Source: Pantanalinema sp. GBBB05 (GTDB lineage: Bacteria > Cyanobacteriota > Cyanobacteriia > Leptolyngbyales > Leptolyngbyaceae). From it: 64,000 nt of DNA. The notes beneath the pieces were generated by a model, which saw only the letters and a list, made by a program, of their open reading frames with translations, ran no database searches and was not told where the DNA came from. Shown one piece after another: positions 4,163 through 58,491 of the stretch. The position numbers and the translations under genes are program-made. The stretch lies in the NCBI RefSeq assembly GCF_016743235.1, contig NZ_VRZD01000005.1, positions 175,622 through 239,621 on the forward strand, written 5' to 3'. The stretch's first letter is position 1. Every line of letters begins with the position of its first letter.

Positions 4163-5245
4163 ATGTCAACGTTGCAATTGCGCCATCTGAATAAAACTTT
4201 TACCCCTAAAGTTGTTCCGGTCAAAGATGTCAGTTTAACCGTAGAAGATGGTGAAGTCCTGACCTTATTAGGACCTTCAGGCTGTGGCAAATCCACCGTC
4301 TTGCGGATGATTGCGGGATTAGAAACTCCGACGAGAGGACAAATTCTGATTGGCGATCGCGATGTCACCTTTACCCGTCCTGGCGATCGCAATGTAGCAA
4401 TGGTATTTCAAAGTTACGCATTGTATCCGCACCTGACGGTCTACGAAAATCTCTGTGCTGGACTGCGATTAAAAAAAGTCCCTCAATCAGAAATTGAGCA
4501 ACGGGTAGCAGAGGTATCGCGTATCCTGGGACTCGATCAGGGATTAATGACCCGTAAACCGGGACAATTATCGGGAGGACAACGGCAACGGGTGGCGGTG
4601 GGACGAGCCTTAGTCCGACGATCGGATGTCTTTCTGTTAGATGAGCCGCTCAGTAATCTAGATGCTTTGTTGCGGGAACGAGTTCGGGCAGACCTAAAGC
4701 AGATTTTCGCGGCGCAAAATACTCCAGTGGTGTATGTTACGCATGATCAAACTGAAGCAATGACGCTCTCGACGCAGGTAGCCGTTCTGAACAATGGTTA
4801 CGTGCAACAATTGGATACTCCAGAGCGGATTTACAATCAACCAGCCAACCAGTTTGTCGCCGGATTTGTCGGCAGTCCGCAAATGAACTTGTTGACTTTG
4901 CCCTGCCAAGGCAATCAAGCCCTGCTGGGTAACTTCAAACTTACCCTACCGGATTTACCGACCCTCCCAGCTCAAGTGGTGATGGGCATTCGTCCAGAGC
5001 ATGTGCAGTTAGCGACCGCCAATGATCCGAATCTAATTCGAGGTGAAGTTTTTCTGGTCGAAAATCTGGGTATGAATCATCTCATCAGTGTGAAAGTCCC
5101 AAATGCCAACGGGGAACCTGTGATTCTGCGATCGCTGCTCCCTCCCCATAGCCCATCCAGTTCTGAGTTATCTCTGACTTTACCGAGTAATGCAATTCAC
5201 TGGTTTGATCCGCAATCTGGTGATGCTTTAGTCAAACGCCCATAA
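4163..5245 (+). CDS. ABC transporter ATP-binding protein (MalK/UgpC-like, with C-terminal TOBE-like domain)
   Basis: Walker A GPSGCGKST, ABC signature LSGGQRQRVAVGRAL, Walker B FLLDEPLSNLD. Confidence 0.9.
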   Translation: MSTLQLRHLNKTFTPKVVPVKDVSLTVEDGEVLTLLGPSGCGKSTVLRMIAGLETPTRGQILIGDRDVTFTRPGDRNVAMVFQSYALYPHLTVYENLCAGLRLKKVPQSEIEQRVAEVSRILGLDQGLMTRKPGQLSGGQRQRVAVGRALVRRSDVFLLDEPLSNLDALLRERVRADLKQIFAAQNTPVVYVTHDQTEAMTLSTQVAVLNNGYVQQLDTPERIYNQPANQFVAGFVGSPQMNLLTLPCQGNQALLGNFKLTLPDLPTLPAQVVMGIRPEHVQLATANDPNLIRGEVFLVENLGMNHLISVKVPNANGEPVILRSLLPPHSPSSSELSLTLPSNAIHWFDPQSGDALVKRP

Positions 5246-5332
5246 ACCATAACGTCATGACAACATCAGCAAACAACGATCGAGTCAAACAATTTCGGAT
5301 GTGATGAATATGAACACTATCACGAAGATACT

Positions 5333-7017: not shown

Positions 7018-8502
7018 TCAGGGTTGATTTTTAACCTCCTCTGCCTCAGCGGGTGTGGCAACCGATGAAAAAATGATGCTCTTGGCGGCACCTGCTGCTT
7101 CTTTAATAAATAGCGGAGGAACGGCATCACGAGACATTTCCTCGATTTGCTGTTTCAGCTTTGCTACCCGCTCCGGTTGCTGATCGGCCAGGTTGGTCTG
7201 CTCGGAAGGGTCTTTTGCCAGGTTAAAGAGTTGCACCTGAGACGGTAGAATCGTTCGCCATACCAGTTTCCAATCGCCTTGCCGCAGTGCCGCCCGAAAC
7301 GGCTCGATCCCATAGACAATTTCATTGCGAATGGCAATCTTCCCGCCGATCAGCGCGGGCCAGACGTTTAATCCATCCACAGGTTTATTAGGATTAGATT
7401 TGGCACCAGCCAGACTGGTCAGGGTCGGATACCAATCGACAATGTGCATCGGTTGGTTCACTACAGAGCCAGGTTTGATGTACTTTGACCAGTTGGCCAG
7501 GGCTACCACCCGAGTACCCCCCTCAAAGAGGGAGGCTTTCCCGTCGCGGTAAGGTCCGTTATCAGCGGGAATTGTGCCGCCAGAAGTATCGACTTCTCCA
7601 GTTACCTTCGCCGATCGCGGACCACCATTGTCACTCTGAAACACAATTAGGGTATTGTCCCGCATCCCCCGTTTGTCTAGAGCGGCTAATACCTGTCCGA
7701 TCTGGTCATCCATTGCCGTAATCATCGCTGCGTAAGCCCGACGGTTGGGATCAGAGATGGACTTGTAGCGATCGAGATACTCCGGGGGCGCTTGATAGGG
7801 GGCATGAGGTGCGGTAAACGCCAGGTACAGAAACAGCGGCGTGTTGGGATCATGCGACTGAATCAGTTGAGCGGCATCTTGACCCAATAAAGAGGTAGCA
7901 TAGCCCTCTTCCTTAACGATCTGATTGTTGCGATACCAATCCACTGTTCCATGTGCCGAGTGCGTGAAGTAGTCGATCTCGCCCAGAATCGGTCCGTATT
8001 GATAATCAAATCCCCGTTGCCGCGGCCAGTATTTACGATCGGCATGACCCAGATGCCATTTACCGACGATCGCCGTCTTATAGCCCACTTCTTTTAAAGC
8101 CTGGGGCAACAACCACTCATCGGTGGCTAAACCATAAGTCCCCGCCGAGGGAATCACAGCCGTTTGCAAACCATACCGATGAGGATATCGTCCCGTCAGC
8201 AACGCCGCCCTTGACGGGGTACACATGGGATGGGCGTAATACTGTTCCAGCCGTGCTCCGGTTTGCGCTAGGCGATCGAGGTTGGGGGTTTTAATATCGG
8301 AACCGTGGAAGCCCACATCTTTCCAGCCCTGATCGTCTGACATGATGTAGAGGATATGGGGACGCACTGGCTTCGACTGAGCAACCGCGAATGGCATCCA
8401 GCTCCGGCTACCAAGCACCAGCACCAAAATCAGGGCAATGAACAGCCCCAAGCCTCTGATCATCCAGCGTTTTCCAGGCATTGCAGTCAGGAAGAATTTC
8501 AT
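7018..8502 (-). CDS. Arylsulfatase (type I sulfatase family), secreted
   Basis: Sulfatase signature CTPSRAALLTGR (C-x-P-x-R, formylglycine site), N-terminal signal-like segment, metal-binding DDQG region. Confidence 0.85.
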   Translation of the reverse strand: MKFFLTAMPGKRWMIRGLGLFIALILVLVLGSRSWMPFAVAQSKPVRPHILYIMSDDQGWKDVGFHGSDIKTPNLDRLAQTGARLEQYYAHPMCTPSRAALLTGRYPHRYGLQTAVIPSAGTYGLATDEWLLPQALKEVGYKTAIVGKWHLGHADRKYWPRQRGFDYQYGPILGEIDYFTHSAHGTVDWYRNNQIVKEEGYATSLLGQDAAQLIQSHDPNTPLFLYLAFTAPHAPYQAPPEYLDRYKSISDPNRRAYAAMITAMDDQIGQVLAALDKRGMRDNTLIVFQSDNGGPRSAKVTGEVDTSGGTIPADNGPYRDGKASLFEGGTRVVALANWSKYIKPGSVVNQPMHIVDWYPTLTSLAGAKSNPNKPVDGLNVWPALIGGKIAIRNEIVYGIEPFRAALRQGDWKLVWRTILPSQVQLFNLAKDPSEQTNLADQQPERVAKLKQQIEEMSRDAVPPLFIKEAAGAAKSIIFSSVATPAEAEEVKNQP

Positions 8503-8531
8503 GTGTACTCTCGATCGTCTCGAACAAACAA

Positions 8532-10262
8532 CTAAAACATCACGGTCATCCGCAGATTCGCAATCACATCGACCCCGTTGCTGGCATCCTGGTTGGGAGC
8601 GGTCAGCACGATCACACCCGGAGTCAGAGAAATGCGATCGTTAATCTGGTAGCGATAGAACCCTTCCAGGTGGAACGGAATATCCGTCTTAAACGACTTC
8701 GGGTTACCACCATCAAAGTCCGTCAGGTAGGGTTCAGCACCAATGACAAACCCGAGTAAGTTACCGCGCTTCCCTAAATCAGGAAACGCCAAGGTCAGGG
8801 CATAGTTGAGGATCGTGCCATCGCCATCGCCAATTAAGCGGGCATAGGTCGCCCCAAACCAACCACTGACGACAAACGCGGGACTAAATTGATAGGAAGC
8901 CTGCACCCCGTAAGAATTGGTAATCACCGGACTGGGATTAAACAAGGGACCAGGAGCCAGTCGAGTTTGTCCGGCTAAGGTATTGGCAACGGCTGTGCCC
9001 TCCAACGGCAGCCCATTGTAGTTAAACCCAAATCGCCCCGGTGCAAAGTAGGTATTTGTATAGGTGGCCGCCAGACTGAACCGCGCACTGGGATTCCAGG
9101 TGATTTGCCCAAAGGCTGTGTACCCACCATTGAATAAGCCACTGCCAGCATCCGGATTATTAGCGCCAAAGCCATCAGCGATATAAGCGCCTGAGAAAAT
9201 GAATTGCTTACCGAACTGCCAATTGATCCCGGCTCCCGCTCCCGCTGCGCCTAATGCATAAATGGCATTCCGTTGTCCGAATAACGAAATGGCTCCTGTT
9301 CCCATTCCCTTATCATCCAGGAGCGGATTGACGGTAGGAACTAAGGCAAACAAGGCAGTATTGCCACCGACGACAAACACTTGGGCAGTGGGGCTGATCG
9401 GAAAGACATATCCCGTCCCTAACATTTGCAGGCGATTGTCGGTGTTCCCACCAAAAGCCACATCCAGTGCCCCTTCCGCTGAATTGACAGGCAACCCTCC
9501 GGCAGTGGTACTCGGCAACCGGAAGCCCCCGATCGGAAATAGCGGCACGTTCCCAGCATAAAGCGAGACAAATAGTAGGTCGTACCCATTAAAACTGGTA
9601 TTGAAATTGAGATTCGCTCGGGCTTGGAACACGGCCTGATTTTTGCTACCCCCATCCGCACCAAAGATGTCGGCAACTGAGAAAATGGCATTGCCAGCTA
9701 ACTTGGTGGTAGTGGAGAACTGCTGCTTTTCCAACGTAGCGGTGCGGACTTCCAGCGTATCGACGCGCCCCTGCAGAGTTGCCAGTTCTACAGCAAACTC
9801 TTCTTGCAACCGTTGAACGACTACCAAATCTTCTTTTCTGACCAAGTCAGCCGTTGCTGCCGTAATCAGTTCCTGCACTTTGTCCAAACAGGCATTCAGA
9901 CCAGCCGCGAACTCATACCGAGTCAACGATCGATTACCGCGATAGGTGCGATCGGGATAACCAACAATGCAACCATACCGTTCAACTAATGACTGTAAGG
10001 CTTGAAATGCCCAATCAGTCGGTTTAACATCCGTGAGCTGAGACACAGATGTGACTTGCTCCATGCCATTAGCATCTGCATTTAAGGTCTGGAAATCGGT
10101 CAGAGGCTCCTCTAGATCAACCGATTGAGCTAGGGGATCAGACGAGGTGAACGTTTTGGTCTCCGCACTTAACTCGGAGGCTAAGGCTGGGGATACCGCG
10201 ATCGTGCTACCACCCAACACCATTAAGCTAATGCATAGTAAGTTCCAGTTTCGCATCCACAC
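8532..10262 (-). CDS. Outer-membrane porin with N-terminal SLH domain (cyanobacterial OprB-like carbohydrate-selective/iron-uptake porin family)
   Basis: Signal peptide ...AVSPALASE, SLH-like segment (TDVKPTDWAFQALQSLVERYGCIVGYPDRTYRGNRSLTRYEFAAGL), coiled-coil linker, then a long Gly/aromatic-rich beta-barrel-like region ending in F. It lies 30 nt upstream of the sulfatase gene on the same strand. Confidence 0.75.
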   Translation of the reverse strand: MWMRNWNLLCISLMVLGGSTIAVSPALASELSAETKTFTSSDPLAQSVDLEEPLTDFQTLNADANGMEQVTSVSQLTDVKPTDWAFQALQSLVERYGCIVGYPDRTYRGNRSLTRYEFAAGLNACLDKVQELITAATADLVRKEDLVVVQRLQEEFAVELATLQGRVDTLEVRTATLEKQQFSTTTKLAGNAIFSVADIFGADGGSKNQAVFQARANLNFNTSFNGYDLLFVSLYAGNVPLFPIGGFRLPSTTAGGLPVNSAEGALDVAFGGNTDNRLQMLGTGYVFPISPTAQVFVVGGNTALFALVPTVNPLLDDKGMGTGAISLFGQRNAIYALGAAGAGAGINWQFGKQFIFSGAYIADGFGANNPDAGSGLFNGGYTAFGQITWNPSARFSLAATYTNTYFAPGRFGFNYNGLPLEGTAVANTLAGQTRLAPGPLFNPSPVITNSYGVQASYQFSPAFVVSGWFGATYARLIGDGDGTILNYALTLAFPDLGKRGNLLGFVIGAEPYLTDFDGGNPKSFKTDIPFHLEGFYRYQINDRISLTPGVIVLTAPNQDASNGVDVIANLRMTVMF

Positions 10263-12557: not shown

Positions 12558-13250
12558 ATGTTTTTTCACAAAAAAGAAGCCATTCACGTTGTTAACGTCG
12601 ATGAAGCAAACCCACGTTTTGCTCAACTTTTGTTAGAGCAATTTGGTGGTGCAACTGGAGAGCTATCAGCCGCTTTGCAATATTGGGTACAGTCTTTCCA
12701 CGTTGAAGATGCAGGCATTCGGGATATGCTTCAGGATATTGCCATTGAAGAGTTTGGTCATTTGGAAATGGTAGGCAAAATGATTGAAGCCCATACCAAG
12801 AATGTGGATCAAACAGACGCCTTCAAAAGTAGCTTGTTTGCTGTGCGGGGTATGGGTCCCCATTTTCTCGATAGTCAAGGCAGCGCTTGGACAGCAAATT
12901 ACTTGAATGAAGGTGGCGATGTTGTTCGGGATTTAAGGGCGAATATTGCGGCTGAAGCTGGAGCGCGCCAAACTTATGAAGCATTAATTAAGTTGGTTCC
13001 TGATGAAGGCAGCAAAAAAACGTTAGTGCATCTGCTGACGCGAGAAATTTCTCACACCAAGATGTTTATGGAAGCACTGAACTCTCTAGGTAAGTTAGAT
13101 GATCCGTTCTTCGGCAATATTCAACCCGATGAAACGGTTGATCTGTACTATAACCTATCGTCTGATGGTGCTACGGATGAACGGGGTCCTTGGAACTCGG
13201 AACCAAATTTCCGTTACATTGCTGATCCTGTAAAAAATGTTCAATCCTAA
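12558..13250 (+). CDS. Manganese-containing catalase (ferritin-like superfamily)
   Basis: Typical Mn-catalase N-terminus MFFHKKE...NPRFAQLLLEQFGGATGELSAALQYWVQSFH and di-metal ligand motifs (EExGHLE, ...ExxH). Confidence 0.85.
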   Translation: MFFHKKEAIHVVNVDEANPRFAQLLLEQFGGATGELSAALQYWVQSFHVEDAGIRDMLQDIAIEEFGHLEMVGKMIEAHTKNVDQTDAFKSSLFAVRGMGPHFLDSQGSAWTANYLNEGGDVVRDLRANIAAEAGARQTYEALIKLVPDEGSKKTLVHLLTREISHTKMFMEALNSLGKLDDPFFGNIQPDETVDLYYNLSSDGATDERGPWNSEPNFRYIADPVKNVQS

Positions 13251-13338: not shown

Positions 13339-14009
13339 CGGTTGAAGCTAAGTACATGGTTATCAATAAACATGGCTTTTCGTAGGATGGATTAGCAATA
13401 GCGTAACCCATGCTGTCAAAGGATGTGATGCGTTACGGCTACTTTTAATATTTTTCGATTGAAGCGAGTTGTTGGCGATCGTGTCTTATTGCCGAAAGTA
13501 ACCGCAGGCGAGAGTCAGCACGGCACCATTGCTGGCACGTTTGGCTACCAAGTCAGTATCATAGCTGCGATCGAGTTTTGCCTGATCACAGTCACCAATT
13601 CAGCCAGCAATAAATTTGCTTCAGTCAAGTAAAATTTAACAAAAGTTAGCTTTCCAACGTTCAGAGTAATAATTAACTCCCAGTTGGCTCTCATACTGGC
13701 TACCGTTAACGTGTTTATACTGAGTTACGGTTGCCAAATTCCAGCTAAATCAGATAATTTTGACGCATAAAAGTGTGCTTTTCCTATTGATAGCGCCAAG
13801 GGTGTTCATGCTTGTCTCTCTCGGGTTAAGGCTACCCTTGGCGAACCGATCAGTGAACGTTGAGTAGGTACCTGCGTCGGCATCACGTTCCGTAATGCGG
13901 CTTATAGCTAGCAATGGAATCGGCGACTGGCAAGTAATGAGCTAGGACAATGGTAATCCAATGATTAGACGGCTGTCATTCGAGCCTCGGATTTCTAGGA
14001 AAACAATCT

Positions 14010-15164
14010 ATGTTGAAGTGTGCCGTTGGTCACAGTAACGATCCTGATTCTCACACTGCGATCGCTGAGGTTTTAGAGCAGATTAGCACGACGTTAAACG
14101 GTGTCTCTCCCAATGCCGGGATTTTGTTCGCTGCGATCGATTTTGATCATCCATTGATTCTGCATCACATCATTGCCGCCTTTCCAGAGCTTCAGTTAAT
14201 CGGCGGCACTACCGATGGTGAAATGTCTTCAGTCTTAGGATTTGAACAGGATTCCCTCACCCTGATGGTATTTTGCTCTGATACCATCACGATTAGTGCT
14301 GGGATGGGACGAGGAGCGTCTAAAGATACCCTGGCAGCAGCCCAAACAGCCGTACAACAGGCGAGGGCTGCCCACCCAACAGCCATTCAATTCTGCATTA
14401 CCCTACCCGAAAGTTTGACAACTAGCGGTGTGATGATTTTGGAAAGCTTGCAGCAGACTTTAGGGGTACAAGTGCCCATCTTTGGTGGTCTGACTGCCGA
14501 TCAATCGAGGTCGCAGCAAACTTATCAGTTTTTTCACACGGAAGTCTGTAGCGATGCTGTGCCAATTCTTTTATTTTCTGGACCTGTACTGTTCTCCCAC
14601 GGGATTGCCAATGGCTGGGAACCGATCGGCAATGCTGGACGCGTGACTAAAGCCGAGAACCATATTGTTTACGAAATTGATGGTCAGCCTGCCCTCGCCT
14701 TTTACCATCGGTATTTGGGAGCGTTACCCCCCTCCTTTGAATATCCACTGGCTGTGTTTGATGGGGATAGCGATCGCTATTATATGCGGGCTCCCTCAGG
14801 CATCTACGATCCGATTGTCGGTAGTATTAATTTTTTTGGAGATGTTGCAGTGCAGTCTGTGGTGCAAATTACTGCGACTACCCATGAAGACATTCTCGCC
14901 GCCTCGCAAACGTCGATTCAGCAAGCTGCCGAGAGCTATCCAGGTCATGCTCCTGCCGCCGCGCTGTTTTTCTCCTGTGCAGGCAGACGGCAACTCCTAG
15001 GACATCGCACCCGCGAGGAATATGAGCTCGCCCAAAAATATCTGACTCAGACTCTACCCAGTTGTGGATTTTATACTTATGGCGAAATTGCCCCCTTACA
15101 ACAACATGGGTTGACTCATTTCCATAATGAAACTTTTATTACCTTACTTCTAGGAGCAGCATAG
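14010..15164 (+). CDS. FIST domain-containing sensory protein (FIST_N + FIST_C)
   Basis: FIST-type N-terminus MLKCAVGHSNDPDSHTAIAEVLEQ...; 384 aa; its stop TAG abuts the ATG of the downstream kinase. Confidence 0.75.
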   Translation: MLKCAVGHSNDPDSHTAIAEVLEQISTTLNGVSPNAGILFAAIDFDHPLILHHIIAAFPELQLIGGTTDGEMSSVLGFEQDSLTLMVFCSDTITISAGMGRGASKDTLAAAQTAVQQARAAHPTAIQFCITLPESLTTSGVMILESLQQTLGVQVPIFGGLTADQSRSQQTYQFFHTEVCSDAVPILLFSGPVLFSHGIANGWEPIGNAGRVTKAENHIVYEIDGQPALAFYHRYLGALPPSFEYPLAVFDGDSDRYYMRAPSGIYDPIVGSINFFGDVAVQSVVQITATTHEDILAASQTSIQQAAESYPGHAPAAALFFSCAGRRQLLGHRTREEYELAQKYLTQTLPSCGFYTYGEIAPLQQHGLTHFHNETFITLLLGAA

Positions 15165-16313
15165 ATGGTGTTGAATAAAGCGGACATGGTATCGGATGCG
15201 GCTGAGAGCGTCACCGAGCCAGGGGAGCGGCTGTCTGTTGAAACTGAGCTACAACAGCGAGTGCAGCAGTTAGAGAAGGAAAATCGGATTCTGCACAAAA
15301 AGCTGGCGAGATCGGAGGCAAACTGCCTGCAACTGGAAGAGACTACGCGAAAAAAAGAATCCCTGCTGCGACAAGTGATCCATGAGCTGAAAACCTCCCA
15401 AACCAATCTAGAACAGCAGAGTCGTGAGCTAGAGCAAGCCCTCAGTAATCTGAAGTCCACCCAAACTCAACTGATCCAAACTGAAAAGATGTCGAGTTTG
15501 GGGCAATTAGTGGCAGGGGTTGCTCATGAGATTAACAATCCCGTCAACTTTATTTACGGCAATCTGAGTCATGTGCAGGAGTATACTCAAAGCCTCATGC
15601 ATCTGATTCAGCTTTATCAACACGCGTATCCCCAGCCCACCCCTGATCTTGTCACCGCCTCAGAGCAACTCGATTTAGCGTTTGTCCAGGAAGATCTACC
15701 TAAAATCTTGGGTTCTATGAAAATCGGTGTCGATCGCATTCGCGAAATTATCCTGTCGCTACGCAACTTCTCGCGCCTGGATGAAGCCGAATTCAAAAGT
15801 GTGGACATTCATGCTGGCATTGAGAGTACCTTATTGATTTTGCAACATCGATTAAAAGCTCAACCTAAACGCCCGGCAATTCAAGTAGTGAAAAACTACG
15901 GGAACTTGCCTTTAGTGGAATGTTATCCAGGGCAACTGAATCAGGTGTTCATGAATATCTTGGCTAATGCGATCGATGCGCTGGAAGAACTGAGTCTGAA
16001 TCACTCCTATGAAACCTTGCAAGCGCAACCCGCCCAGATTCACATCACTACTTCAGTCATTGATGCAGATCGTGTCCAAATTGCGATCGCGGATAATGGG
16101 GCGGGGATTCCTGAAGATCTCTGCTCCAGTATTTTCAATCTCTTTTTCACCACAAAGCCAGTCGGTAAGGGCACTGGAATTGGGATGTCAATTAGCCATC
16201 AAATCATCACAGAAAAACATAGCGGTACACTAACCTGTGCTTCCAATCTGGGTGAAGGAACGGAGTTCTTAATTCAAATTCCAATTCACCAAACATCTGA
16301 TGAAGCTGCATAA
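15165..16313 (+). CDS. Cytoplasmic sensor histidine kinase (coiled-coil + HisKA + HATPase_c)
   Basis: Coiled-coil N-terminus, H-box VAGVAHEINNPVNFIYGN, N/G1/G2 boxes (NAIDA..., DNGAGIPE..., GTGIGMSISHQII). No TM segments. Confidence 0.85.
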   Translation: MVLNKADMVSDAAESVTEPGERLSVETELQQRVQQLEKENRILHKKLARSEANCLQLEETTRKKESLLRQVIHELKTSQTNLEQQSRELEQALSNLKSTQTQLIQTEKMSSLGQLVAGVAHEINNPVNFIYGNLSHVQEYTQSLMHLIQLYQHAYPQPTPDLVTASEQLDLAFVQEDLPKILGSMKIGVDRIREIILSLRNFSRLDEAEFKSVDIHAGIESTLLILQHRLKAQPKRPAIQVVKNYGNLPLVECYPGQLNQVFMNILANAIDALEELSLNHSYETLQAQPAQIHITTSVIDADRVQIAIADNGAGIPEDLCSSIFNLFFTTKPVGKGTGIGMSISHQIITEKHSGTLTCASNLGEGTEFLIQIPIHQTSDEAA

Positions 16314-16434
16314 TTTCGACTACTACGATCTGTCAGTCTACACTTGGCTTCTGCTCAGAATGTTGCCCTTTCAGAAGTAGTATCGATATGCACTCTGTCA
16401 GGGCAAGCATGATCAGCTAAGTATAGTTAGGGGA

Positions 16435-16890
16435 TTAGTTGGTAGTGACAGGCTGCTTTGCCTCTGTATAAAACCCATTAGTTGAAGTGCGTTGCGGCGG
16501 TTCGGCAGCTGGAACAGTTGACCCTGTTGACCGCTTTCGTTTTCGGGCTGACCCGCCTGCCTTGGTGTATTCCACACTAGTTCTGCCATATTTAGCGGCT
16601 ACACCCGTTAACATCCGTTCTGACATCGCTGATAGAGCGGCATCCATTTGATTGAGGCGTTGACGATATTCTTCAGCGTTGGATAGCAGAGTGTTATAAG
16701 CCTCTAAAGTGGCGCGGTTCTCTTCAATCAAGTTAGTATACGCAGCAACTGTCAAGCCTGACCCTAAATCTAGATTGATATCAAGCGACTTGAGCAGAGC
16801 TAACCGACGTTGAGCTTTGCTGAGAGCGCTAGAACCACGAGTTTGGAGAACCATAGTAAATGCCTTCCTAATGCGAATTTCCCTCAGCAT
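16435..16890 (-). CDS. Hypothetical protein
   Basis: 151-aa ORF, coiled-coil-like middle, basic C-terminal tail. No recognisable motif. Confidence 0.4.
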   Translation of the reverse strand: MLREIRIRKAFTMVLQTRGSSALSKAQRRLALLKSLDINLDLGSGLTVAAYTNLIEENRATLEAYNTLLSNAEEYRQRLNQMDAALSAMSERMLTGVAAKYGRTSVEYTKAGGSARKRKRSTGSTVPAAEPPQRTSTNGFYTEAKQPVTTN

Positions 16891-16977
16891 AGTAAAACCT
16901 GACTGATACAGAAATTCGTGATTCTATGGATCTTGTCATCCTTATTTCTTGCCTAACAGAAAATCACCGTATATTTA

Positions 16978-17235
16978 TTGAGCCATCACTCGATCTCCTT
17001 TGCGGCGATCGCGGACTACACTCAAGAGAGCAAAAATGCAGAATATTACCCTCGTACCTACTATCAACGAGGGCTAGCCTACGTAGCAAAAGGCGATCAG
17101 CAAAAAGCCATTCAGGATTTTGAGAAAGTCATTCAACTCACCCAAGAACCGGATTTTCCAAGATACACAACCAATCAAGGACTTCAACAGCAGGCCAAGG
17201 AACAACTTCAAAAACTGAGATCTGGAGTTCTGTGA
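16978..17235 (+). CDS. Short TPR-like protein (possibly a gene fragment)
   Basis: Contains a TPR-like stretch YYQRGLAYVAKGDQQKAIQDFEKVIQL; only 85 aa. Confidence 0.3.
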   Translation: MSHHSISFAAIADYTQESKNAEYYPRTYYQRGLAYVAKGDQQKAIQDFEKVIQLTQEPDFPRYTTNQGLQQQAKEQLQKLRSGVL

Positions 17236-17492
17236 TGGTTATTGGAGCCTCTTTGTCGTGTGGAGGTCAAGGTTCACCATCGCTACACACAACATTGAGA
17301 TCGCCTCTCTTCTCGAACTTTCTTCATGCGATCGCCTCCACGACAGCATCACGGAGAGTAGTCTAGATAACGTTCCCAATCAGCGGCGGCTAGTAACTTT
17401 TGCAGCACCACCCAGATCCTCATTCCGTCCGCTGCAAGGGGGTTGTTAGACCGTGCCTCACTGGTCGCTTCAACTGGGGTTCATCTTGATTA

Positions 17493-17915
17493 CTATCCAC
17501 CTTGCTTGGGGCAGATTTCAAATTCAGAACGAGCACGGAAGAAACAGACCTCAAACTCGAAAAAGAAATTAGCCTGTCCTAAAATCAAAGGCACATCGGT
17601 TGCTCGTGTCCAGGCAAATGCTAAATCCACCCTTGAGAATGAACTGACTTGAGCATCAACAACGACTGCGCGAGCTTCAAATCGAGCCAAGTTTCCTGCC
17701 AACACAACCGAGAGTGTCTCATTTTCCCAGATCAAACCCAGTTGTGTCCCCAACTCGTATGGCAAAACATTAACGCTTGCGCCTGTATCCAGTAAGCCTT
17801 CAGTGCTCAGGGATTGACCATCAAGGCTGAGCGTCAAAGGCAGGTATGGCATTCGATCAACCATGCCAAGGCTGCTGTCAATGATTTTGTAGGGAAATCT
17901 TTGAGTGTCAACCAT
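17493..17915 (-). CDS. Retropepsin-like (clan AA) aspartic protease domain protein
   Basis: Active-site motif LLDTGASVNVLPYELG (D-T/S-G-A) in a protein of about 140 aa. Confidence 0.6.
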   Translation of the reverse strand: MVDTQRFPYKIIDSSLGMVDRMPYLPLTLSLDGQSLSTEGLLDTGASVNVLPYELGTQLGLIWENETLSVVLAGNLARFEARAVVVDAQVSSFSRVDLAFAWTRATDVPLILGQANFFFEFEVCFFRARSEFEICPKQGG

Positions 17916-18126
17916 TCTTTTCTTGCTGCTTTGTCGCCAGAAGATTCATCAGGACATTAGCAGCCTCAGAACAGTTGTATGGCGACCAGACCGGATACTC
18001 TTGGTTTGCAACAAAGAAGTTTGCATCTTCTTCTTTGACCAGTTCTGTCGCAAGAAACTGCATCAGCCGAAGCTTGTCAATTTTTGGAAGCCCCTGGATT
18101 TGTGACATGAGTTCAGCCAATGGCAT
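17908..18126 (-). CDS. Small hypothetical protein, translationally coupled to the aspartic protease gene
   Basis: 72-aa ORF whose stop overlaps the protease ORF start by 8 nt. Confidence 0.4.
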   Translation of the reverse strand: MPLAELMSQIQGLPKIDKLRLMQFLATELVKEEDANFFVANQEYPVWSPYNCSEAANVLMNLLATKQQEKNG

Positions 18127-18209
18127 TTGAGAATCTCCTTTTCTGAGATTGAGTGAAAAGATTGGAGATGCTGGCTTGGCGCATGAAGGCGATCGCTACC
18201 ATCATCATT

Positions 18210-18431
18210 CTAATGAAGAAATGCCATATTGCGAATCCCGCGACTGAACCAGTAAAGACCTATTGGAACCATACCTACAAGTGATCCAATTACTCCTGGC
18301 ATTCCGCCTGGAATAGTCGAAGAAATCGCTGCGAAAAGCATTCCTCCAGTAAGAATCACAGAGCTAGCTATAAGATAAGCACTAGCCCGTACCACTTTTG
18401 CCAAGTCAGCATCCATTCTCTTATCACTCAC
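18210..18431 (-). CDS. Small hydrophobic (two-TM) protein, GTG start
   Basis: 73-aa ORF, Gly/Ala-rich hydrophobic. It is preceded by a roughly 49-nt leader element shared with the small ORF at 22051-22233. Confidence 0.35.
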   Translation of the reverse strand: MSDKRMDADLAKVVRASAYLIASSVILTGGMLFAAISSTIPGGMPGVIGSLVGMVPIGLYWFSRGIRNMAFLH

Positions 18432-18625
18432 GCGGTCTAACTCTTATTTAGACTGATCCTAACCTCTCTAATTTGGATAACTACCCTATTTTGGGCGATT
18501 AGGCAGATTTGAATCTAAAATAACACCCTGTTTGGGGGAGATAGGCTGAAGTTTATTTGCATAACTGTCCAGAATTGGCTCTTATCCAGATAGGAATCTG
18601 AATAACTACCCGAATTGGAGATGTA

Positions 18626-19009
18626 ATGCAGAGGAAGTTGTTCCTAAATCATCTGGGTTTGACTGCGATCGCTGCTCCTAAATCAGCAAACGGAGCTCCC
18701 GAAATAACAAATGGAGCTCCCGAAATAACAAATGGAGCTCTCGAAATAACAAATGGAGCTCCCAAAGTAACAAACGGAGCTCCCAAAGTAACAAACGGAG
18801 CTCCCGAAGTAACAAACGGAGCTCCCGAAGTAACAAATGGAGCTCCCAAAGTAACAAACGGAGCTCCCGAAGTAACAAATGGAGCTCCCAAAGTAATAAA
18901 TGGCGATCGCTCTAACGATCGTGATGCTGAGCGACCAACGCCGAAAAGGTGCTTGGGTCAAGAGGTGCAGCCTAAGCCTCAACGCCTTTCCGGTAACGAT
19001 CCGCTCTAG
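18626..19009 (+). CDS. Putative heptapeptide-repeat protein (NGAPEVT/NGAPKVT x10)
   Basis: In-frame ORF across the tandem repeat with GGAG 6 nt upstream of the ATG. Coding status is uncertain because other frames also stay open across the repeat. Confidence 0.35.
   Translation: MQRKLFLNHLGLTAIAAPKSANGAPEITNGAPEITNGALEITNGAPKVTNGAPKVTNGAPEVTNGAPEVTNGAPKVTNGAPEVTNGAPKVINGDRSNDRDAERPTPKRCLGQEVQPKPQRLSGNDPL
18688..18903. repeat. Perfectly phased 21-bp tandem repeat, 10 copies plus a partial unit (consensus AAAYGGAGCTCCCRAAGTAACA)
   Basis: Read directly from the sequence. Units differ only at a few positions (T/C, G/A, AA/GA), giving an NGAPE/K-V/I-T heptapeptide in the + frame. Confidence 0.9.
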
Positions 19010-19016
19010 CGAAGGC

Positions 19017-19787
19017 TTAAATCCCAATGCCGAGCATTTGAGGCAACAGTTCTTCGGCGCGCCCAAAATACTGCTCCTGAAACGCGGGGTTAGGCTGTTG
19101 CATCGGTTCTAGGTTCACGTAGACGGTCCTTGCTCCAGCATACTCCGCACTTCGCACATAGTTTGACGCCGGAGCTACCATACCCGAAGTTCCGACAGCA
19201 AGAAAAAGATCGCAGTCGCGCAGCGCACGTTTGACAGTCCAGCTTGGGAGTGCGGGCAACTCTTCGCCGAAGAGGACAATATCGGGGCGAAGTGCGCTAC
19301 CGCAAACAGGGCAAGTTGGAACAACGTCTTGGTGCAATTCCTCGTCGCGGAATGGGGTGAGTGTGCAGGAAAGGTTGCTGCACTTGGTGAACATAATGTT
19401 GCCGTGGATCTCGCAGACATTGCGGCTGCCGGCCATTTGGTGCAAGCCATCGATGTTCTGAGTGACAAGCAGAAACTCCTGGCTTGGAGAGATACTTGCT
19501 TCCCACTCAACTAACGCCCGGTGAGCAGCATTGGGTTGAGCTGCAAGGATAGGCTCGCGCATCGCACCAAATAGCCGCCAGGTGTCGGCTGGACGCTCCT
19601 GTAGGGTACGTACGTGCCCAAGTTGCTCAACGTCGTGCTCTTCCCACACACCGTTGGGTCCACGGTAGGGTCTCAAACCAGACGCCACGGATATTCCTGC
19701 GCCTGTGAGAACAACAACTCTGGAATACTGGGTGCGATCGATACGCATGATGACTCCTTGGGAGTGGAAAATCAGCCAAGAACACAA
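19017..19787 (-). CDS. cobB: NAD-dependent protein deacylase, Sir2 family (CobB-like)
   Basis: GAGISVASGLRPYRG NAD-binding motif, Zn-ribbon cysteines (CSNLSC...CPVCG), catalytic region QNIDGLH. The true start is probably ATG at 19748 (MRIDRTQYSRVVVLTGAGIS). Confidence 0.8.
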   Translation of the reverse strand: MCSWLIFHSQGVIMRIDRTQYSRVVVLTGAGISVASGLRPYRGPNGVWEEHDVEQLGHVRTLQERPADTWRLFGAMREPILAAQPNAAHRALVEWEASISPSQEFLLVTQNIDGLHQMAGSRNVCEIHGNIMFTKCSNLSCTLTPFRDEELHQDVVPTCPVCGSALRPDIVLFGEELPALPSWTVKRALRDCDLFLAVGTSGMVAPASNYVRSAEYAGARTVYVNLEPMQQPNPAFQEQYFGRAEELLPQMLGIGI

Positions 19788-19989
19788 GCGCTACAGGGTT
19801 AACTGAAACAGAGCTGCGAGCACCATTGCATTAGTTAAATCGGTTTGCAGCAAGCCTATCGCTGCTCGCTCCAAAACATTATTTATCTTGCCATTGTAGC
19901 TTGAGACTCCGAGAAAGTAATTCTCCCGAAGTCTCAAGCTGGCGATCGATGGCTGATGCCTCAGTCACCATGTCTTGAGCCAGCAATAA

Positions 19990-21993
19990 CTAGCCTGGGT
20001 TGGTGGGATTAAACGCAGACCAAGCTCTCCAAAAGTCTGGGTAGGTCATAGTTTGAGCACAATTCCAAATCAACTGATGACAGAGATCGGCGCGATCGGA
20101 CGGTGTCCAATCGGTTTCACATTCCAGACTATGGGAATTTTGTAGAGGTTCCTGACTACATTGAGCATCTCCGGTTGACCTCTTTGGTCGGAACACTAGG
20201 AGATGTTTGAGATGATAAACAATTGGCATTGCGAGTTCAACAAGAGCAGTTTGGTAGCATTCTGCCAACTCCTTAGACAACGACAAACTAATTGGCTTTG
20301 TTTGAAGAAGCGTAACCAAAGCGTTGAGTACAGTCTCATTAACACTACCCGATCGCAGCACCCTCAGGAAAGCTGAGTCGGAATCGGTTTTCTCCCACAC
20401 TTGAATCAGGGTTTCGATCGCTAACGGATGTTCGGGTATCAGTTTCACCAGACCAGCCGCCGCCGTTTGTCGCTCATATTCATTTTCACTAGTTTGGATA
20501 ATTTGCATCAGCTTTGGAGTCAGTGTTGTAATGATGCATGACTGGTGAAAACTCACTGGCTGGAAGTAGTCAATTATCGCTTCCAAGTTGTAAACCTGTT
20601 GGGTTGAGCGAACCAGATGCATCATGGCTGCGATTGTTCGATCATCTCTGGCATCCAGGTGAGTTAAACGGGCGATCGCTGCTGCGACATCGCTTTCTGG
20701 CTCAGCCGTTTCAATCAAGCGGACAAGAATCTCCCGTTCAACCTGATAATTTGGATCAATTGCCCTCAGCTGCATGAGTTCGCGTGACGGTCGAGGTTGA
20801 TATGCCGTTAGCAGGATCCGTCCCAACTGAAACAGAGCCGCGATCGCCATTGTGTGAGTTATATCAGTTCGCAGCAAGCCTACAGCGGCTCGTTCCACTA
20901 TTCCATTGATCCTGCCATTGGATCTTGAGACTTCGGGAAAGTAGGTCTCAAGCAGGCTTGTTAAGATAGCGATCGCCTGCTCATGCGCTGGGTCTAGCCA
21001 GATGATATTCATGGCTACAAAGCTTTGGGTTTCAGGCTCTTGCTGCTCGTGCAGCAGTTGAGTTAGAAACGGAACAACTTCTGGATGACCACTTGCCACG
21101 CTTCCCAGCACTCCCAGGCAACGGTGGATTAACCATTCTTCGTCTATCGATGGAATGAGTTGCTGCAAAGCTTCGATCACGTCCAGGTTGCCTTTTGCAA
21201 TGACCTCCAGGGTTTGAATGATTTCAAACATCAATACATTTTGCGTTCGCTGCTCGCTTAATTGCTGGAGAAGGATAGCGATCGCCAGTGGATTGCCAAC
21301 AGCTACCGTTCTCAAGTACAAGAATGCTGAGCTGAGTGTTCTTTGCTGGTCATATTTCCGGCAATCAACGGGAGTTTGAATCACCTTTAGCAAGGCTGGA
21401 ACAATCGCTGGGTGACCAGGTGCAACTCGGCTCAGGCATTCTGTGACATCTAGTAATTGCCGGGGGGATTGAACCCTCTGGATCAGGCATTCGAGCGCCG
21501 CGATCGCGCAATGGTTTCCCGGATCAAGCTGGCACAATTGTTCCGCTGCAACTCGCAGGATCAGGCGACTATCAGTAGTGCGCAGTAACCGCTCGAACTG
21601 AGCAATGACTCGATTACGATCGGTGTATTCCAAGGCTTTTCTGGCGGCTTTGCTTAATGCGGTTGGATACATTTTCCAATCCCGCTTGTCTTGCCGAAAA
21701 TAGGCATAACTCCAGAGCAACAGTTGACGGACGATCGCGTCTGCTTGAACGGACTCTTTAAAGTGAGTAATGGCAGCGGCGGCTAGAAAGTAAGCACGGT
21801 ATCGAAAGAAATCACCACAGGCATCTTCAAAATGCGTCAAGGCATAGAGCAGCGCTTCTTTCTGAGTAGGACTGACATCTTTAGAAGCAAACCATTCCAG
21901 AATTTTAGGCTTCCATTCAGGTTCAAAGATGTGGTAAACGCTGTTGTTTAGATTGCGGGGAATGTGACGAAAGAAACGATTCCAATCATGCAT
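19990..21993 (-). CDS. HEAT-repeat (PBS-lyase HEAT-like repeat) protein
   Basis: 667 aa with recurrent GHPxxVPxLxxLL helical repeats (e.g. ASGHPEVVPFLTQLL, APGHPAIVPALLKVI, AVGNPLAIAILLQQL). Confidence 0.6.
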   Translation of the reverse strand: MHDWNRFFRHIPRNLNNSVYHIFEPEWKPKILEWFASKDVSPTQKEALLYALTHFEDACGDFFRYRAYFLAAAAITHFKESVQADAIVRQLLLWSYAYFRQDKRDWKMYPTALSKAARKALEYTDRNRVIAQFERLLRTTDSRLILRVAAEQLCQLDPGNHCAIAALECLIQRVQSPRQLLDVTECLSRVAPGHPAIVPALLKVIQTPVDCRKYDQQRTLSSAFLYLRTVAVGNPLAIAILLQQLSEQRTQNVLMFEIIQTLEVIAKGNLDVIEALQQLIPSIDEEWLIHRCLGVLGSVASGHPEVVPFLTQLLHEQQEPETQSFVAMNIIWLDPAHEQAIAILTSLLETYFPEVSRSNGRINGIVERAAVGLLRTDITHTMAIAALFQLGRILLTAYQPRPSRELMQLRAIDPNYQVEREILVRLIETAEPESDVAAAIARLTHLDARDDRTIAAMMHLVRSTQQVYNLEAIIDYFQPVSFHQSCIITTLTPKLMQIIQTSENEYERQTAAAGLVKLIPEHPLAIETLIQVWEKTDSDSAFLRVLRSGSVNETVLNALVTLLQTKPISLSLSKELAECYQTALVELAMPIVYHLKHLLVFRPKRSTGDAQCSQEPLQNSHSLECETDWTPSDRADLCHQLIWNCAQTMTYPDFWRAWSAFNPTNPG

Positions 21994-22233: not shown

Positions 22234-22326
22234 TGCTTGTCACATATAACTCTTACCTAGATTGATCTTAGCCTCTCTAATCTGGTAGCCACCCGAACGG
22301 TTGATTATACAAAGTTAGTTGTCACA

Positions 22327-22926
22327 CTAATTTATGCGGCTAAACATTGTTCTCATCTTGAAGTGGTCATAACGGAGTGGTTTCCAGTTTTGCTCCTCAG
22401 CAGTCCATTCCCAAGATGGAAAATGCCCTATTGGGGCTGTTATGTCAAAAATCATCTTTGCTGGTGGGATAAGATAATCCCGTCGGTCTCGCCAACCTAC
22501 CTGCTGAGTAAACTCTCTGTACTGTTCGATCAAAGCATCAACTTCATAGGGAGTCTTTGGTTTAGGTAAAGATTGCCAAATTTTCTGCTGAATGCCCCAT
22601 CCAAACTTACCTTGACTATACTCACCCCAAAGGTTGTCGATCAGTTTTATATCTTTGCAGTCAATCCTTGCTAAGTCATCTAAGTTATAGAGTTTTGATT
22701 CTGGCACAATTCGCCCAATAGTTCGCTGAAAAAAGTTCTTCTTTGTCGCTAACACAATAACTATTGCTCGTGTTTTCTCATCAGCACTTTTCCAATCTTT
22801 AGCTTTAAGAACCTTCTCCAAACCCTGAAAATCAGCTTCTTCAGGAGGCAGATTCCACAAGGCGATGAGACTGATAAAGACAACAGATGGAACAAACCAC
22901 ATCCAAACTAACCGCTTATTCCACAT
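22327..22926 (-). CDS. GUN4 domain-containing protein with N-terminal transmembrane anchor
   Basis: GUN4-type core LARIDCKDIKLIDNLWGEYSQGKFGWGIQQKIW; N-terminal hydrophobic helix LVWMWFVPSVVFISLIALWNL. Confidence 0.65.
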   Translation of the reverse strand: MWNKRLVWMWFVPSVVFISLIALWNLPPEEADFQGLEKVLKAKDWKSADEKTRAIVIVLATKKNFFQRTIGRIVPESKLYNLDDLARIDCKDIKLIDNLWGEYSQGKFGWGIQQKIWQSLPKPKTPYEVDALIEQYREFTQQVGWRDRRDYLIPPAKMIFDITAPIGHFPSWEWTAEEQNWKPLRYDHFKMRTMFSRIN

Positions 22927-23929: not shown

Positions 23930-24316
23930 TTGCCTATCATGAAGGCTTACTCGCCCGACCTGCGTCAGAAAATTGTAGACCGCTATGGGGAGGGCAACAT
24001 CTCCCAACGCGAACTCGCCCGCCAGTTTCGAGTCGCAGCCAGTTTTGTCCAAACGCTGCTCAAACGGTATCGAGAGACTGGAAAGGTTGGGGCAAAAGTT
24101 CGTACCCAACAAACGCCCACGAAGCTGAATGCCGAGCAGTTGAGCGTCCTCGAACAATTAGTCGAGGTCCAAAACGATGCCACCCTCAAGGAACTGCGGG
24201 ACCGCCTAGAGGAAAAGACGGGGGTGAGCGTCAGTTGCACGACGATCCATCGGATGCTCGTCAAGTTGAACATGAGCGTCAAAAAAAACGTTTCACGCCA
24301 GCGAAAAGGACACTGA
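23930..24316 (+). CDS. IS630-family transposase, N-terminal HTH part (orfA)
   Basis: Paired HTH motifs typical of IS630 (...SQRELARQFRVAASFVQTLLKRY...; ...LKELRDRLEEKTGVSVSCTTIHRML). The ORF ends shortly after an A8 run at 24282-24289. Confidence 0.8.
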   Translation: MPIMKAYSPDLRQKIVDRYGEGNISQRELARQFRVAASFVQTLLKRYRETGKVGAKVRTQQTPTKLNAEQLSVLEQLVEVQNDATLKELRDRLEEKTGVSVSCTTIHRMLVKLNMSVKKNVSRQRKGH

Positions 24317-24320
24317 ACGA

Positions 24321-24884
24321 GTGCAACAGCAGCGGGTCGAGTTTTGGCAATTGGTGCAGGGGATTTTAGCCAAGGACTTAATCTTCATCGACGAGGCAGG
24401 GGTAAATTTGGCAATGGTGCGCTTGATGGCACGATCCCCCAAAGGACAACGGGCACACGGGAAACGTCCGCACAAACGGGGTAAAAACGTCTCCATGATT
24501 GGGGCAATCGGACTTGAAGGGGTGATTGCTCAATTGCCTCTGCTTGGTGCAATCGATGGGCTACTGTTTGAAGCCTTCATCGCCCAAAAGCTGGTGCCGA
24601 AGTTGTGGAAGGGCGCTTGTGTCATTCTGGATAACTGCTCAATTCACAAGGGAGACACCGTGATTGAATTAATTCAAAAAGCAGGCGCAACGGTCATTTT
24701 CCTACCGCCTTATTCCCCGGAATTCTCCCCCATTGAAAACTGTTGGTCAAAAATCAAAAATTTGTTGCGTTCTTTGAGTGCGAGAACTTATCCAGAGTTA
24801 GTCAAAGCGATTGAGCAAGCGTTTGCTCAAGTCTCACCTAATGATCTGCAAGGTTGGTTCACGCATTGCTGTTACTGTACCTGA
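24321..24884 (+). CDS. IS630-family transposase, C-terminal DDE catalytic part (orfB), in the +1 frame relative to orfA
   Basis: DDE-region motifs IFIDEAGVNLAMVR, ...ILDNCSIHKG..., ...FLPPYSPEFSPIENCW.... Frame 0 versus frame 2 for orfA. Confidence 0.8.
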   Translation: MQQQRVEFWQLVQGILAKDLIFIDEAGVNLAMVRLMARSPKGQRAHGKRPHKRGKNVSMIGAIGLEGVIAQLPLLGAIDGLLFEAFIAQKLVPKLWKGACVILDNCSIHKGDTVIELIQKAGATVIFLPPYSPEFSPIENCWSKIKNLLRSLSARTYPELVKAIEQAFAQVSPNDLQGWFTHCCYCT

Positions 24885-39106: not shown

Positions 39107-39274
39107 CCCATTCCTCACACAAAATTTAGTCGAATTTGGAAAAGCTTCTATCAGTAATGCAACAAGCACTTCAGTTCAGTCGCAATCTACAGACGTGTTA
39201 TTTCAGCAATACCAACTGAACTTGGCAAAGCTGTTATATCTAATTGCTTTCGACAACTCAAATATTGATCAGTT

Positions 39275-49034: not shown

Positions 49035-49200
49035 ATTAGCGATCGCACTAGGTCATAGACTCAAGCATTGTAGCGACTAATTTACCTGTCAGAGAAGCTC
49101 GAAAGACTCGAAAGCATATCCCAAAAGCGGAGCTGTAACTTCAGTGATCTAATTTCACCATCAATCCGAACAATGACATTGAGCCCATCAAGCCATCGTA

Positions 49201-52695: not shown

Positions 52696-52712
52696 TAAGG
52701 AATGAACATAAC

Positions 52713-57332: not shown

Positions 57333-57404
57333 AGACCGCGTTCTACATCTCGTTTTGCCATTATCTCCCCATTTTTCCACAATCAGCAATCGGAGACTCA
57401 CTGA

Positions 57405-58475: not shown

Positions 58476-58491
58476 TTTCTGAAATTTAGCA

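Follow-up and report, generated by a model that had tools for sequence, protein, structure and literature searches.

Organisation of the locus

The window analysed here is the whole 64-kb stretch of the Pantanalinema sp. GBBB05 contig, and it contains a short tandem array situated in spacer DNA, all neighbouring genes of which are encoded on the minus strand. These neighbours comprise a SIR2-family gene, a gene for a NACHT-C/HEAT protein, a small membrane ORF and a PDC-M52 pair. On the right of the array lies sir2 (19017-19748, minus strand), encoding a SIR2-family NAD-dependent deacylase, which is convergent with a 127-codon ORF running across the array on the plus strand (18626-19009). On the left, a conserved repeat element (18441-18632, plus strand) separates the array from an unannotated 73-codon ORF (18210-18431, minus strand; 68 codons from the ATG at 18416), which has hydrophobic segments and starts at the left edge of that element, and from a two-gene module (17493-18126, minus strand) encoding a 72-aa protein and a 140-aa retropepsin-like protein, the PADLOC candidate system PDC-M52 A/B. 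An NRPS/PKS cluster is also located in the window, about 28 kb from the array.

The region is accessory, as the first-pass annotation had described it. Copies of the PDC-M52 module with 88-91% identity occur amid different neighbours in further cyanobacterial contigs, which indicates that the module is mobile. The array does not belong to this module, as homology to the other copies ends at 18139-18142; the locus contigs used for comparison were retrieved only via the aspartyl protease and the 72-aa gene. GC content is 41-45% left of the array and jumps to 55% at its right end, with 55-56% in the segment carrying sir2. The nearest Sir2 homologues are 73-80% identical and reside in GC-rich non-cyanobacterial contigs, the contexts of the two closest (77-78% identical) being GC-rich contigs of non-cyanobacterial appearance, and in the three contexts that were read both the array and a gene order shared with the window are absent. 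Judged from these comparisons, sir2 was apparently acquired horizontally.

Anatomy of the array

Using Tandem Repeats Finder, a lone array was detected at 18687-18903 (period 21, 10.3 copies, 92% matches, no indels, score 336), with no second array of comparable strength within the 64-kb window. It consists of ten 21-bp units arranged head-to-tail at 18689-18898, with the consensus AACGGAGCTCCCGAAGTAACA (the unit can also be written as AAYGGARCTCCCRAARTAACA). A degenerate 21-nt pattern allowing for up to three mismatches gave ten matches, all within 18689-18898 and at an exact spacing of 21 nt, against a mean of 0.01 matches in 100 shuffled controls. Five columns vary among the ten units, exclusively by transitions (C/T, C/T, G/A, A/G and C/T). 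The initial description of ten phased 21-bp repeats that read NGAP(E/K)(V/I)T and differ by transitions only was thus accurate, as was the statement that this is not a CRISPR array, since successive units start 21 nt apart, which is their own length, and no unique spacers come between them.

Each unit is composed of a GC-rich half, bearing the 8-bp palindrome GGAGCTCC (GGAGCTCT in unit 3), beside an A-rich half. Adjacent units are the most alike, the mean difference between units rising from 1.56 at lag 1 to 3-4 at lags 7-9, which fits the expectation from stepwise slippage or unequal exchange. Directly to the left, at 18668-18688, we identified a degenerate proto-unit, ATCGCTGCTCCTAAATCAGCA, identical to unit 1 at 13 of 21 positions and forming a 77% copy in register (repeat family D1); by its sequence it is likely the seed from which the array expanded. 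The array is bracketed by two copies of the HIP1 palindrome GCGATCGC, one at 18665-18672, ending 16 nt left of the array, and the other at 18903-18910, 5 nt beyond the right end of the last unit and also falling within a terminator-like hairpin on the minus strand (18921->18904). HIP1 occurs 49 times in the 64-kb window, the GC content of which is 47.7%, and this marks the DNA as cyanobacterial. Searches against Rfam (at the gathering threshold and at E <= 1) and for tRNAs returned no informative result.

A related strain is represented by Logan contig L121 (SRR34289846), which is 98.3% identical to positions 13409-18740 of the window and ends inside the array. The two differ by about 2% left of 16957 and at two positions in the 1754 nt of 16958-18711, against four differences in the first 54 nt of the array. 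One L121 change (G to A) lies inside the palindrome and converts GGAGCTCC to GGAACTCC, which in the frame of the ORF replaces Ala with Thr. This comparison supports a much faster turnover of the array than of its flanks, in agreement with the recent expansion or rapid turnover proposed at first reading.

Conserved element left of the array

The conserved element begins with the leader TAACTCTTATTTAGAC..., followed by four imperfect-palindrome units of ~41 nt, which start at 18470, 18512, 18555 and 18595 and have the form CTGnATAAC-nACCC-N5-GGG-n-GTTATnCAG. Alignment across loci delimited an element of ~200 nt in which the leader TAACTCTTATTTAGACTGATCC precedes four to six tandem ~41-nt units. 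It was found in four other loci, i.e. in Kovacikia and in three metagenome loci detected by the leader pattern, while a partial second copy is present in the window at ~22246-22300; the 21-bp array is absent from the other loci carrying the element. In a sensitive DNA search of plasmids, Kovacikia minuta pA matched 18437-18629 at 81% identity, up to the ATG of the ORF. Homology of the element stops at TTATGCAG, and downstream of it the window shares nothing with the other loci. As for the ~41-nt units themselves, folding does not support stable hairpins in single-stranded DNA (z-scores about 0, with -2.7 for one unit). A derivation of the array from these units (2 x 21) was rejected on comparison by eye, as there is no likeness beyond CCCGAA.

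At locus L138 the element is located between a bona fide integron integrase gene (TIGR02249, 462.8 bits against a cut-off of 265) and a divergent gene, and in Kovacikia it is followed by a 22-residue remnant of the IntI N-terminus. No intI was detected in the window by tblastn with the L138 IntI, and no clear attC sites were found by a simple inverted-repeat scan. An attC candidate at 17393-17449 (minus strand; GTCTAAC...GTTAC) folds no better than shuffled sequences, and the left edge of the element on the minus strand reads G|TTAGAC. Based on homology, the left flank would be a remnant of an integron attI/promoter-like region devoid of its integrase gene, and it is plausible that the plus strand is transcribed from the former integrase promoter region. 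Integron platforms are organised as intI, attI and cassettes (Cury et al. 2016, PMC4889954). The flanking element is homologous to the region by intI in L138; the window itself is without intI. To our knowledge, tandem ~41-nt palindromic units are not among the described features of attI.

The open reading frame across the array

The ORF comprises 21 codons before the array, 70 within it and 36 after it. Its units read NGAP(E/K)(V/I)T, with NGALEIT and NGAPKVI as the exceptions, and the tryptic peptides expected of the product, if it is made, are VTNGAPK, VTNGAPEVTNGAPK and SANGAPEITNGAPEITNGALEITNGAPK. The first-pass annotation had noted a 127-aa ORF with GGAG 6 nt before its ATG; both the ORF and the motif are present, GGAG occupying 18617-18620, and the spacer to the ATG at 18626 is 5 nt.

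Among the alternatives to a non-coding repeat, the one that fares best, unlikely as we consider it, is that of a real and very young orphan gene. When the integrase gene was lost, its promoter region, GGAG and ATG would have stayed behind and would now drive a chimeric 127-aa product, in which a short hydrophobic N-terminus is followed by ten heptads and by a basic tail derived from the 3' flank of sir2. Such a product is predicted to be intrinsically disordered and would possibly be secreted, its length following the copy number of the array. The idea draws on the GGAG 5 nt before the ATG, on the position of the start at the right edge of an element which in L138 adjoins the integrase gene, on the mildly hydrophobic N-terminus MQRKLFLNHLGLTAIAA and on a repeat period divisible by 3. 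Furthermore, in the related strain a gene caller reported a partial ORF of 39 codons at the end of the Logan contig, and callers disagree on the ORF. AlphaFold2 modelling of the product gave a pLDDT of 53 and a pTM of 0.11, with secondary structure absent, a predicted disorder that would suit a linker made of repeats. For disordered proteins of this sort, neither homologues nor fold predictions nor strong purifying selection are to be expected.

The start context, however, has another origin. The last ~41-nt unit of the conserved element supplies both the GGAG (from its GGG... part) and the ATG (from its ...GTTATGCAG arm), and counterparts of the ORF start are present in Kovacikia (GGAGGTGTTATGCAC), L138 (GGGTGTTATGCAG) and L136 (GGGATGTTATGTAG). 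The same ATG opens a frame of 18 codons in Kovacikia and in L136 is directly followed by TAG. Because the GGAG and the ATG lie inside a conserved non-coding element, they are no evidence for a gene at this position. Moreover, no sigma-70-like promoter was found on the plus strand upstream of the ORF, the stop codon of which lies 7 nt from that of the convergent sir2, with no terminator found.

Records and homology searches likewise count against a gene. The NCBI annotation has no CDS between the 72-aa gene (MBL1174783) and SIR2 (MBL1174784), as follows from the consecutive accessions, the RefSeq accessions being likewise consecutive, and the 127-aa product is absent from protein records in which every neighbour tested is present. 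A word-indexed search with the product among 5.8 billion proteins gave zero matches. An exhaustive phmmer search of 1.84 billion representatives gave 3182 repeat-driven matches and no true homologue; the matches that were read align only to residues ~16-97, i.e. the repeat part, and represent either heptad-repeat proteins of no relation or reading frames that cross other minisatellites (VEGAPRD, SGGPEVC, TDGAPQL, TNGAEKR). Pfam hits remained below the gathering threshold (DUF5974, 17.7 bits with a cut-off of 38.5; MopE, 17.6 bits with a cut-off of 27), and PADLOC and NCBIfam gave nothing informative for the ORF.

Codon usage was assessed with a log-likelihood score for which 25 long ORFs of the window served as the training set. 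Outside the repeat the ORF has 57 codons, and these scored 0.005 per codon, compared with 0.256 +/- 0.095 for chunks of real genes of equal length, 0.85% of which scored lower, and with -0.12 +/- 0.15 for off-frame chunks. The test has little power for young or foreign genes, as even the genuine sir2 reaches only 0.034. Within the repeat, all four Ile residues are encoded by ATA, the rarest Ile codon (RSCU 0.13). When the related strain is included, six sites of the unit are variable, one of which is synonymous in the frame of the ORF; codon positions 1 and 2 are hit, and the replacements are E/K, I/V, P/L, T/I and A/T, so the variation is mostly non-synonymous and includes the charge-swapping E/K as well as the Ala to Thr change of the related strain.

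The openness of the frame is explained by the repeat itself. The unit, being 3 x 7 nt long, has no stop codon in five of the six frames, which produces long open frames on both strands. Measured from stop to stop, the frame of the ORF spans 135 codons and one on the minus strand 141; since the latter is just as open, the length of the ORF carries no information. Neither homologues beyond the repeat nor coding-like codons nor an excess of synonymous changes, as expected of a conserved protein gene, were found. The ORF is a chimera that spans the compositional junction, and it is most likely not a gene; we judge it an incidental product of the repeat. Thus, of the two options left by the first-pass annotation, a heptapeptide-repeat protein or a non-coding satellite, the satellite is favoured and the protein has little support. 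Its suggestion of phase-variable (on/off) expression does not hold, as 21 is a multiple of 3, so that a change in copy number keeps the frame, and there are no promoter hexamers flanking the array.

Palindromes of the array

The hexamer GAGCTC is strongly depleted outside the array, where the 64 kb contain a single copy against 9.9 (Markov) to 14.1 (base composition) expected, and it occurs about once in ~80 kb of related cyanobacterial loci. In addition, neighbouring palindromes are able to form pairs (the folds have z-scores of -8.3 and -6.7 in the case of RNA, and of -3.1 for three units as single-stranded DNA). The ten GAGCTC copies are an oddity that fits a recent expansion which selection has not yet removed; they might also be retained in the array for a function at the DNA level.

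The latter would make the array a cis-acting DNA element, in which ten GGAGCTCC palindromes, placed exactly two helical turns apart and alternating with A-rich halves, would offer sites on one face of intrinsically bent DNA to a dimeric protein, e.g. an iteron/centromere-like or nucleoid-associated protein, a regulator or a SacI-type modification/restriction enzyme. We regard this as very improbable. The 8-bp palindrome is indeed phased at exactly 21 bp, GAGCTC is otherwise almost purged from the window and related loci, and the array adjoins a second array of palindromic units, those of ~41 nt. However, no rep, par or regulator gene is adjacent, and the palindrome mutates both between close strains (GGAGCTCC to GGAACTCC) and within the array (GGAGCTCT in unit 3). 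Furthermore, there is no second copy of the array in the window or in the other loci with the flanking element, a similarity search with the array DNA against plasmids and phages yielded nothing, and the specific unit pattern had no match in JGI metagenomes or viral contigs.

Comparison with known repeat families

Bacterial minisatellites, or VNTR loci, are tandem repeats of ~10-100 bp used for MLVA typing, and copy-number polymorphism is the defining property of a VNTR. The array resembles them in its near-identical head-to-tail units, in its intergenic location and in a divergence between close strains that is faster than that of the flanks, and it has the high-identity unit of 10-100 bp in head-to-tail order by which a minisatellite is recognised. 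It differs from the class in that its unit contains a strongly avoided 8-bp palindrome.

The first-pass annotation had also pointed to catalogues of cyanobacterial STR (heptanucleotide) sequences. Cyanobacterial STRR are short tandemly repeated repetitive heptanucleotide sequences, and the array is like them in being tandem, non-coding and cyanobacterial, with 21 equal to 3 x 7. This link was not sustained, as the array has no 7-nt sub-period, 21 being the sole period given by Tandem Repeats Finder, and the heptamers AACGGAG, CTCCCGA and AGTAACA are unrelated. True heptamer arrays are present in Kovacikia (GAAGGCA x5) and in L136 (TTTTGAG x10.7), and they look quite different.

Plasmid iterons and the centromeres of type Ib and II partition systems are direct repeats of ~10-22 bp phased with the DNA helix. 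The array likewise has about ten direct repeats, and it is phased, at a spacing of two helical turns. Unlike these systems, it has no adjacent rep or par gene, and its core is not conserved between close strains.

Non-genic 21-bp arrays of a similar style do exist in filamentous cyanobacteria. We scanned the genome collection with the pattern GGAGCTCC-N13-GGAGCTCC-N13-GGAGCTCC, a general pattern that also matched unrelated 21-bp or heptad repeats in many phyla. Among the matches listed, Oscillatoria princeps RMCB-10 has 21-bp arrays at five or more dispersed sites (GATGGAGCTCCGAGCTCGAAC), an uncultured Oscillatoria at least three arrays of 21-bp period and Hormoscilla at least one, with the unit TATGGAGCTCCCGGAATCATT, which is identical to the unit of the window at 16 of 21 positions. 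These arrays, of 3-14 copies, share with ours the period of 21, one GGAGCTCC per unit and the origin from filamentous cyanobacteria; they lie mostly outside long ORFs and at unrelated loci, and some of their units contain stop codons in some frames. The Oscillatoria unit shares 3 of the 13 bases outside the core with the unit of the window, the core itself being shared through the search pattern (ascertainment), and arrays of the Oscillatoria type are multi-copy per genome, whereas the array studied here is single within 64 kb. We therefore claim no homology between them. Literature searches for minisatellites and 21-bp repeats of cyanobacteria yielded no specific report. Among the known families considered, the generic minisatellite class is the only one into which the array fits.

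Interpretation

That an assembly error created the array, or its number of copies, seems to us highly improbable. The window derives from a short-read MAG, on which the count of ten copies rests, tandem repeats are often mis-assembled, and the k-mer-based Logan contig breaks inside the array. However, two assemblies, made independently and from different samples, share the left junction and the first 2.5 units, so that the array cannot be an error peculiar to one of them, and the substitutions that distinguish the units allow them to be ordered. Hardly credible, finally, is a multi-core RiPP precursor from which ten heptapeptide cores behind a leader peptide are cut out and modified, since beyond the formal layout of a leader plus short cores and the NRPS/PKS cluster about 28 kb off, the cores abut without linkers or recognition sequences, no protease, cyclase, radical-SAM, YcaO or ATP-grasp gene is among the neighbours tested (about 10.5-25.5 kb), and protein searches found a homologous precursor nowhere.

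We favour, with a probability of roughly 65%, the interpretation of the array as a lineage-specific, hypervariable (VNTR-type) non-coding minisatellite at a rearrangement junction, across which the ORF is incidental. It stands on the anatomy of the array and its rapid turnover, on the missing annotation and the lack of homologues, on a codon score resembling that of non-coding sequence and on the derivation of the start context; from these we infer an expansion by slippage and the absence of a function. Replication slippage or unequal recombination would have multiplied a seed of ~21 nt, situated between two HIP1 palindromes, into head-to-tail copies. Since the GGAGCTCC core is self-complementary, neighbouring units could pair as hairpins in single-stranded DNA and thereby favour slippage. 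The expansion would have taken place in spacer DNA at a junction, with the putative integron remnant on the left and the presumably acquired GC-rich sir2 on the right, and the plus-strand ORF would begin by chance at the ATG of the conserved flanking element.

Against this non-coding interpretation we counted the Shine-Dalgarno-like GGAG with an ATG where the integrase promoter region would be, the partial ORF call on the Logan contig, the mildly hydrophobic N-terminus, the weakness of the codon test, and the retention of ten copies of a GAGCTC that is avoided elsewhere. That the locus is either a gene caught at birth from orphaned integrase signals or a binding array for a SacI-type or other dimeric protein appears to us, taking the two together, rather improbable.

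Significance

As a minisatellite, the array itself would be of little consequence, one more of its kind in bacteria and at most a strain-typing marker for Pantanalinema. It does call for caution, as tandem repeats with a period of 3n create convincing but spurious ORFs. Moreover, the flank shows that both a Shine-Dalgarno-like motif and a start codon can come from a conserved element that is non-coding, which bears on claims of de novo genes and on annotation. If the locus were instead a gene at its birth, it would encode a strain-variable, disordered small protein with a 70-residue NGAP(E/K)(V/I)T domain behind an orphaned integrase promoter. The integron-associated element is a more promising lead than the array: the tandem set of ~41-nt imperfect palindromes beside integron integrase genes in Leptolyngbyaceae may represent an undescribed attI/promoter architecture of cyanobacterial integrons.

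An integron-like element and a candidate defence module

A conserved element of ~200-300 nt, comprising a leader (TAACTCTTATTTAGAC) and 4-6 tandem imperfect-palindrome units of ~41 nt, is common to Pantanalinema, Kovacikia minuta pA and three metagenome-collection contigs (L136, L137 and L138). It is positioned at 18441-18632 of the window, with a partial copy at 22246-22300, at 5001-5270 of the Kovacikia contig, at 3826-4100 of L136, in L137 and at 9795-10030 (minus strand) of L138. In the latter contig the element is flanked on one side by an integron integrase gene (TIGR02249) and on the other by a divergent gene, and an 83-bp tandem repeat (8390-8617) is situated shortly downstream of intI; the Kovacikia copy is adjoined by an intI remnant. 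The minus strand at the left edge of the element reads G|TTAGAC. The element may represent an attI/promoter region of integrons in Leptolyngbyaceae, with a tandem-palindrome architecture that is not known to have been described.

Nearby, a gene pair encoding 72 aa and 140 aa (retropepsin-like) at 17493-18126 on the minus strand matches components A and B of the PADLOC candidate defence system PDC-M52 (E-values 9e-12 and 4e-55). Since other cyanobacterial contigs carry the pair at 88-91% DNA identity among entirely different neighbours, the two genes form a mobile module that may be an integron cassette. The identical 72-aa sequence is likewise listed under a Planktothrix MAG, and close relatives (at least 90% identity) occur in Microcoleus and Nostoc. 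Downstream of the module, at 17393-17449 (minus strand), lies an attC-like candidate of ~60 nt, in which GTCTAAC (fitting RYYYAAC) and GTTAC enclose a CTTGCAGC / GCTGCAAG stem; its folding energy was not better than that of shuffled sequences. The PDC-M52 module, a 73-aa ORF and the integron-like element are all contained in the block 16958-18711, which differs from a contig of a related strain (SRR34289846) at 2 of 1754 nt. Because the same strains are ~2% apart immediately to the left, the comparison suggests that the block was recently exchanged or swept.

Accessory and biosynthetic genes

To the right, the sir2 gene occupies an island of 55-56% GC (18900-19800) against a background of 41-48%. 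Its nearest homologues share 73-80% identity and include GC-rich, non-cyanobacterial-looking contigs, two further matches of 65-66% identity are named Thermoanaerobaculia, and its codon score is low (0.034; real genes 0.256 +/- 0.095). The gene was probably acquired horizontally. A 667-aa HEAT-repeat protein with a NACHT C-terminal Cys/His (NCC-H) domain (19990-21993, minus strand), a GUN4-like protein with an additional match to the C-terminal portion of PADLOC model PD-T4-6 (22327-22926, minus strand) and an IS630-family transposase divided between separate HTH and DDE ORFs (23930-24884, plus strand) mark what is, by predicted gene content, an accessory region rich in conflict systems. Further along, a hybrid NRPS/PKS cluster (47427-63189, plus strand) encodes a KAS III-like protein with an ACP domain, a C-A-T module with a TubC-type docking domain, a KS-AT-KR-ACP module, a luciferase-like monooxygenase and a C-A-T-C module (two condensation-domain matches), and continues towards the end of the window; a TonB-dependent receptor is encoded near it (36563-39169, minus strand).

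Tandem arrays in other genomes and palindrome avoidance

The genome scan, whose pattern itself imposed the palindrome core and the 21-bp spacing, yielded among the matches listed dispersed 21-bp arrays in Oscillatoria princeps RMCB-10 (L001, L062, L091, L093, L109) and an uncultured Oscillatoria (L008, L025, L105). Their unit, GATGGAGCTCCGAGCTCGAAC, is present in 8-14 copies with two GAGCTC sites per unit, at no fewer than five loci with unrelated flanks and mostly outside long ORFs, which looks like a genome-wide minisatellite family. Also among the matches listed, arrays of 21-bp period around the 12-bp palindrome TTGGGAGCTCCCAA recur across numerous contigs from Bacteroidales MAGs that appear to be related, namely Odoribacteraceae MAG Cc175_bin13 (L014, L024, L032, L034, L038, L070, L071, L092, L097, L103, L112) and Tannerella, Proteiniphilum and Prevotellaceae MAGs. 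Their frequent position at contig ends suggests that this repeat family is abundant and interrupts assembly. True heptanucleotide arrays occur in Kovacikia (GAAGGCA x5, L135 5481-5517) and in L136 (TTTTGAG x10.7, 12966-13043).

The SacI site, GAGCTC, is subject to strong avoidance: outside the array of ten 21-bp units (18689-18898) it occurs once in the 64 kb versus 9.9-14.1 expected, and about once in ~80 kb of related cyanobacterial loci (L122-L138). Other GC-rich hexamer palindromes (GTCGAC, CCGCGG, CTCGAG and GGGCCC) are likewise avoided, which may point to restriction systems, whether present or past.
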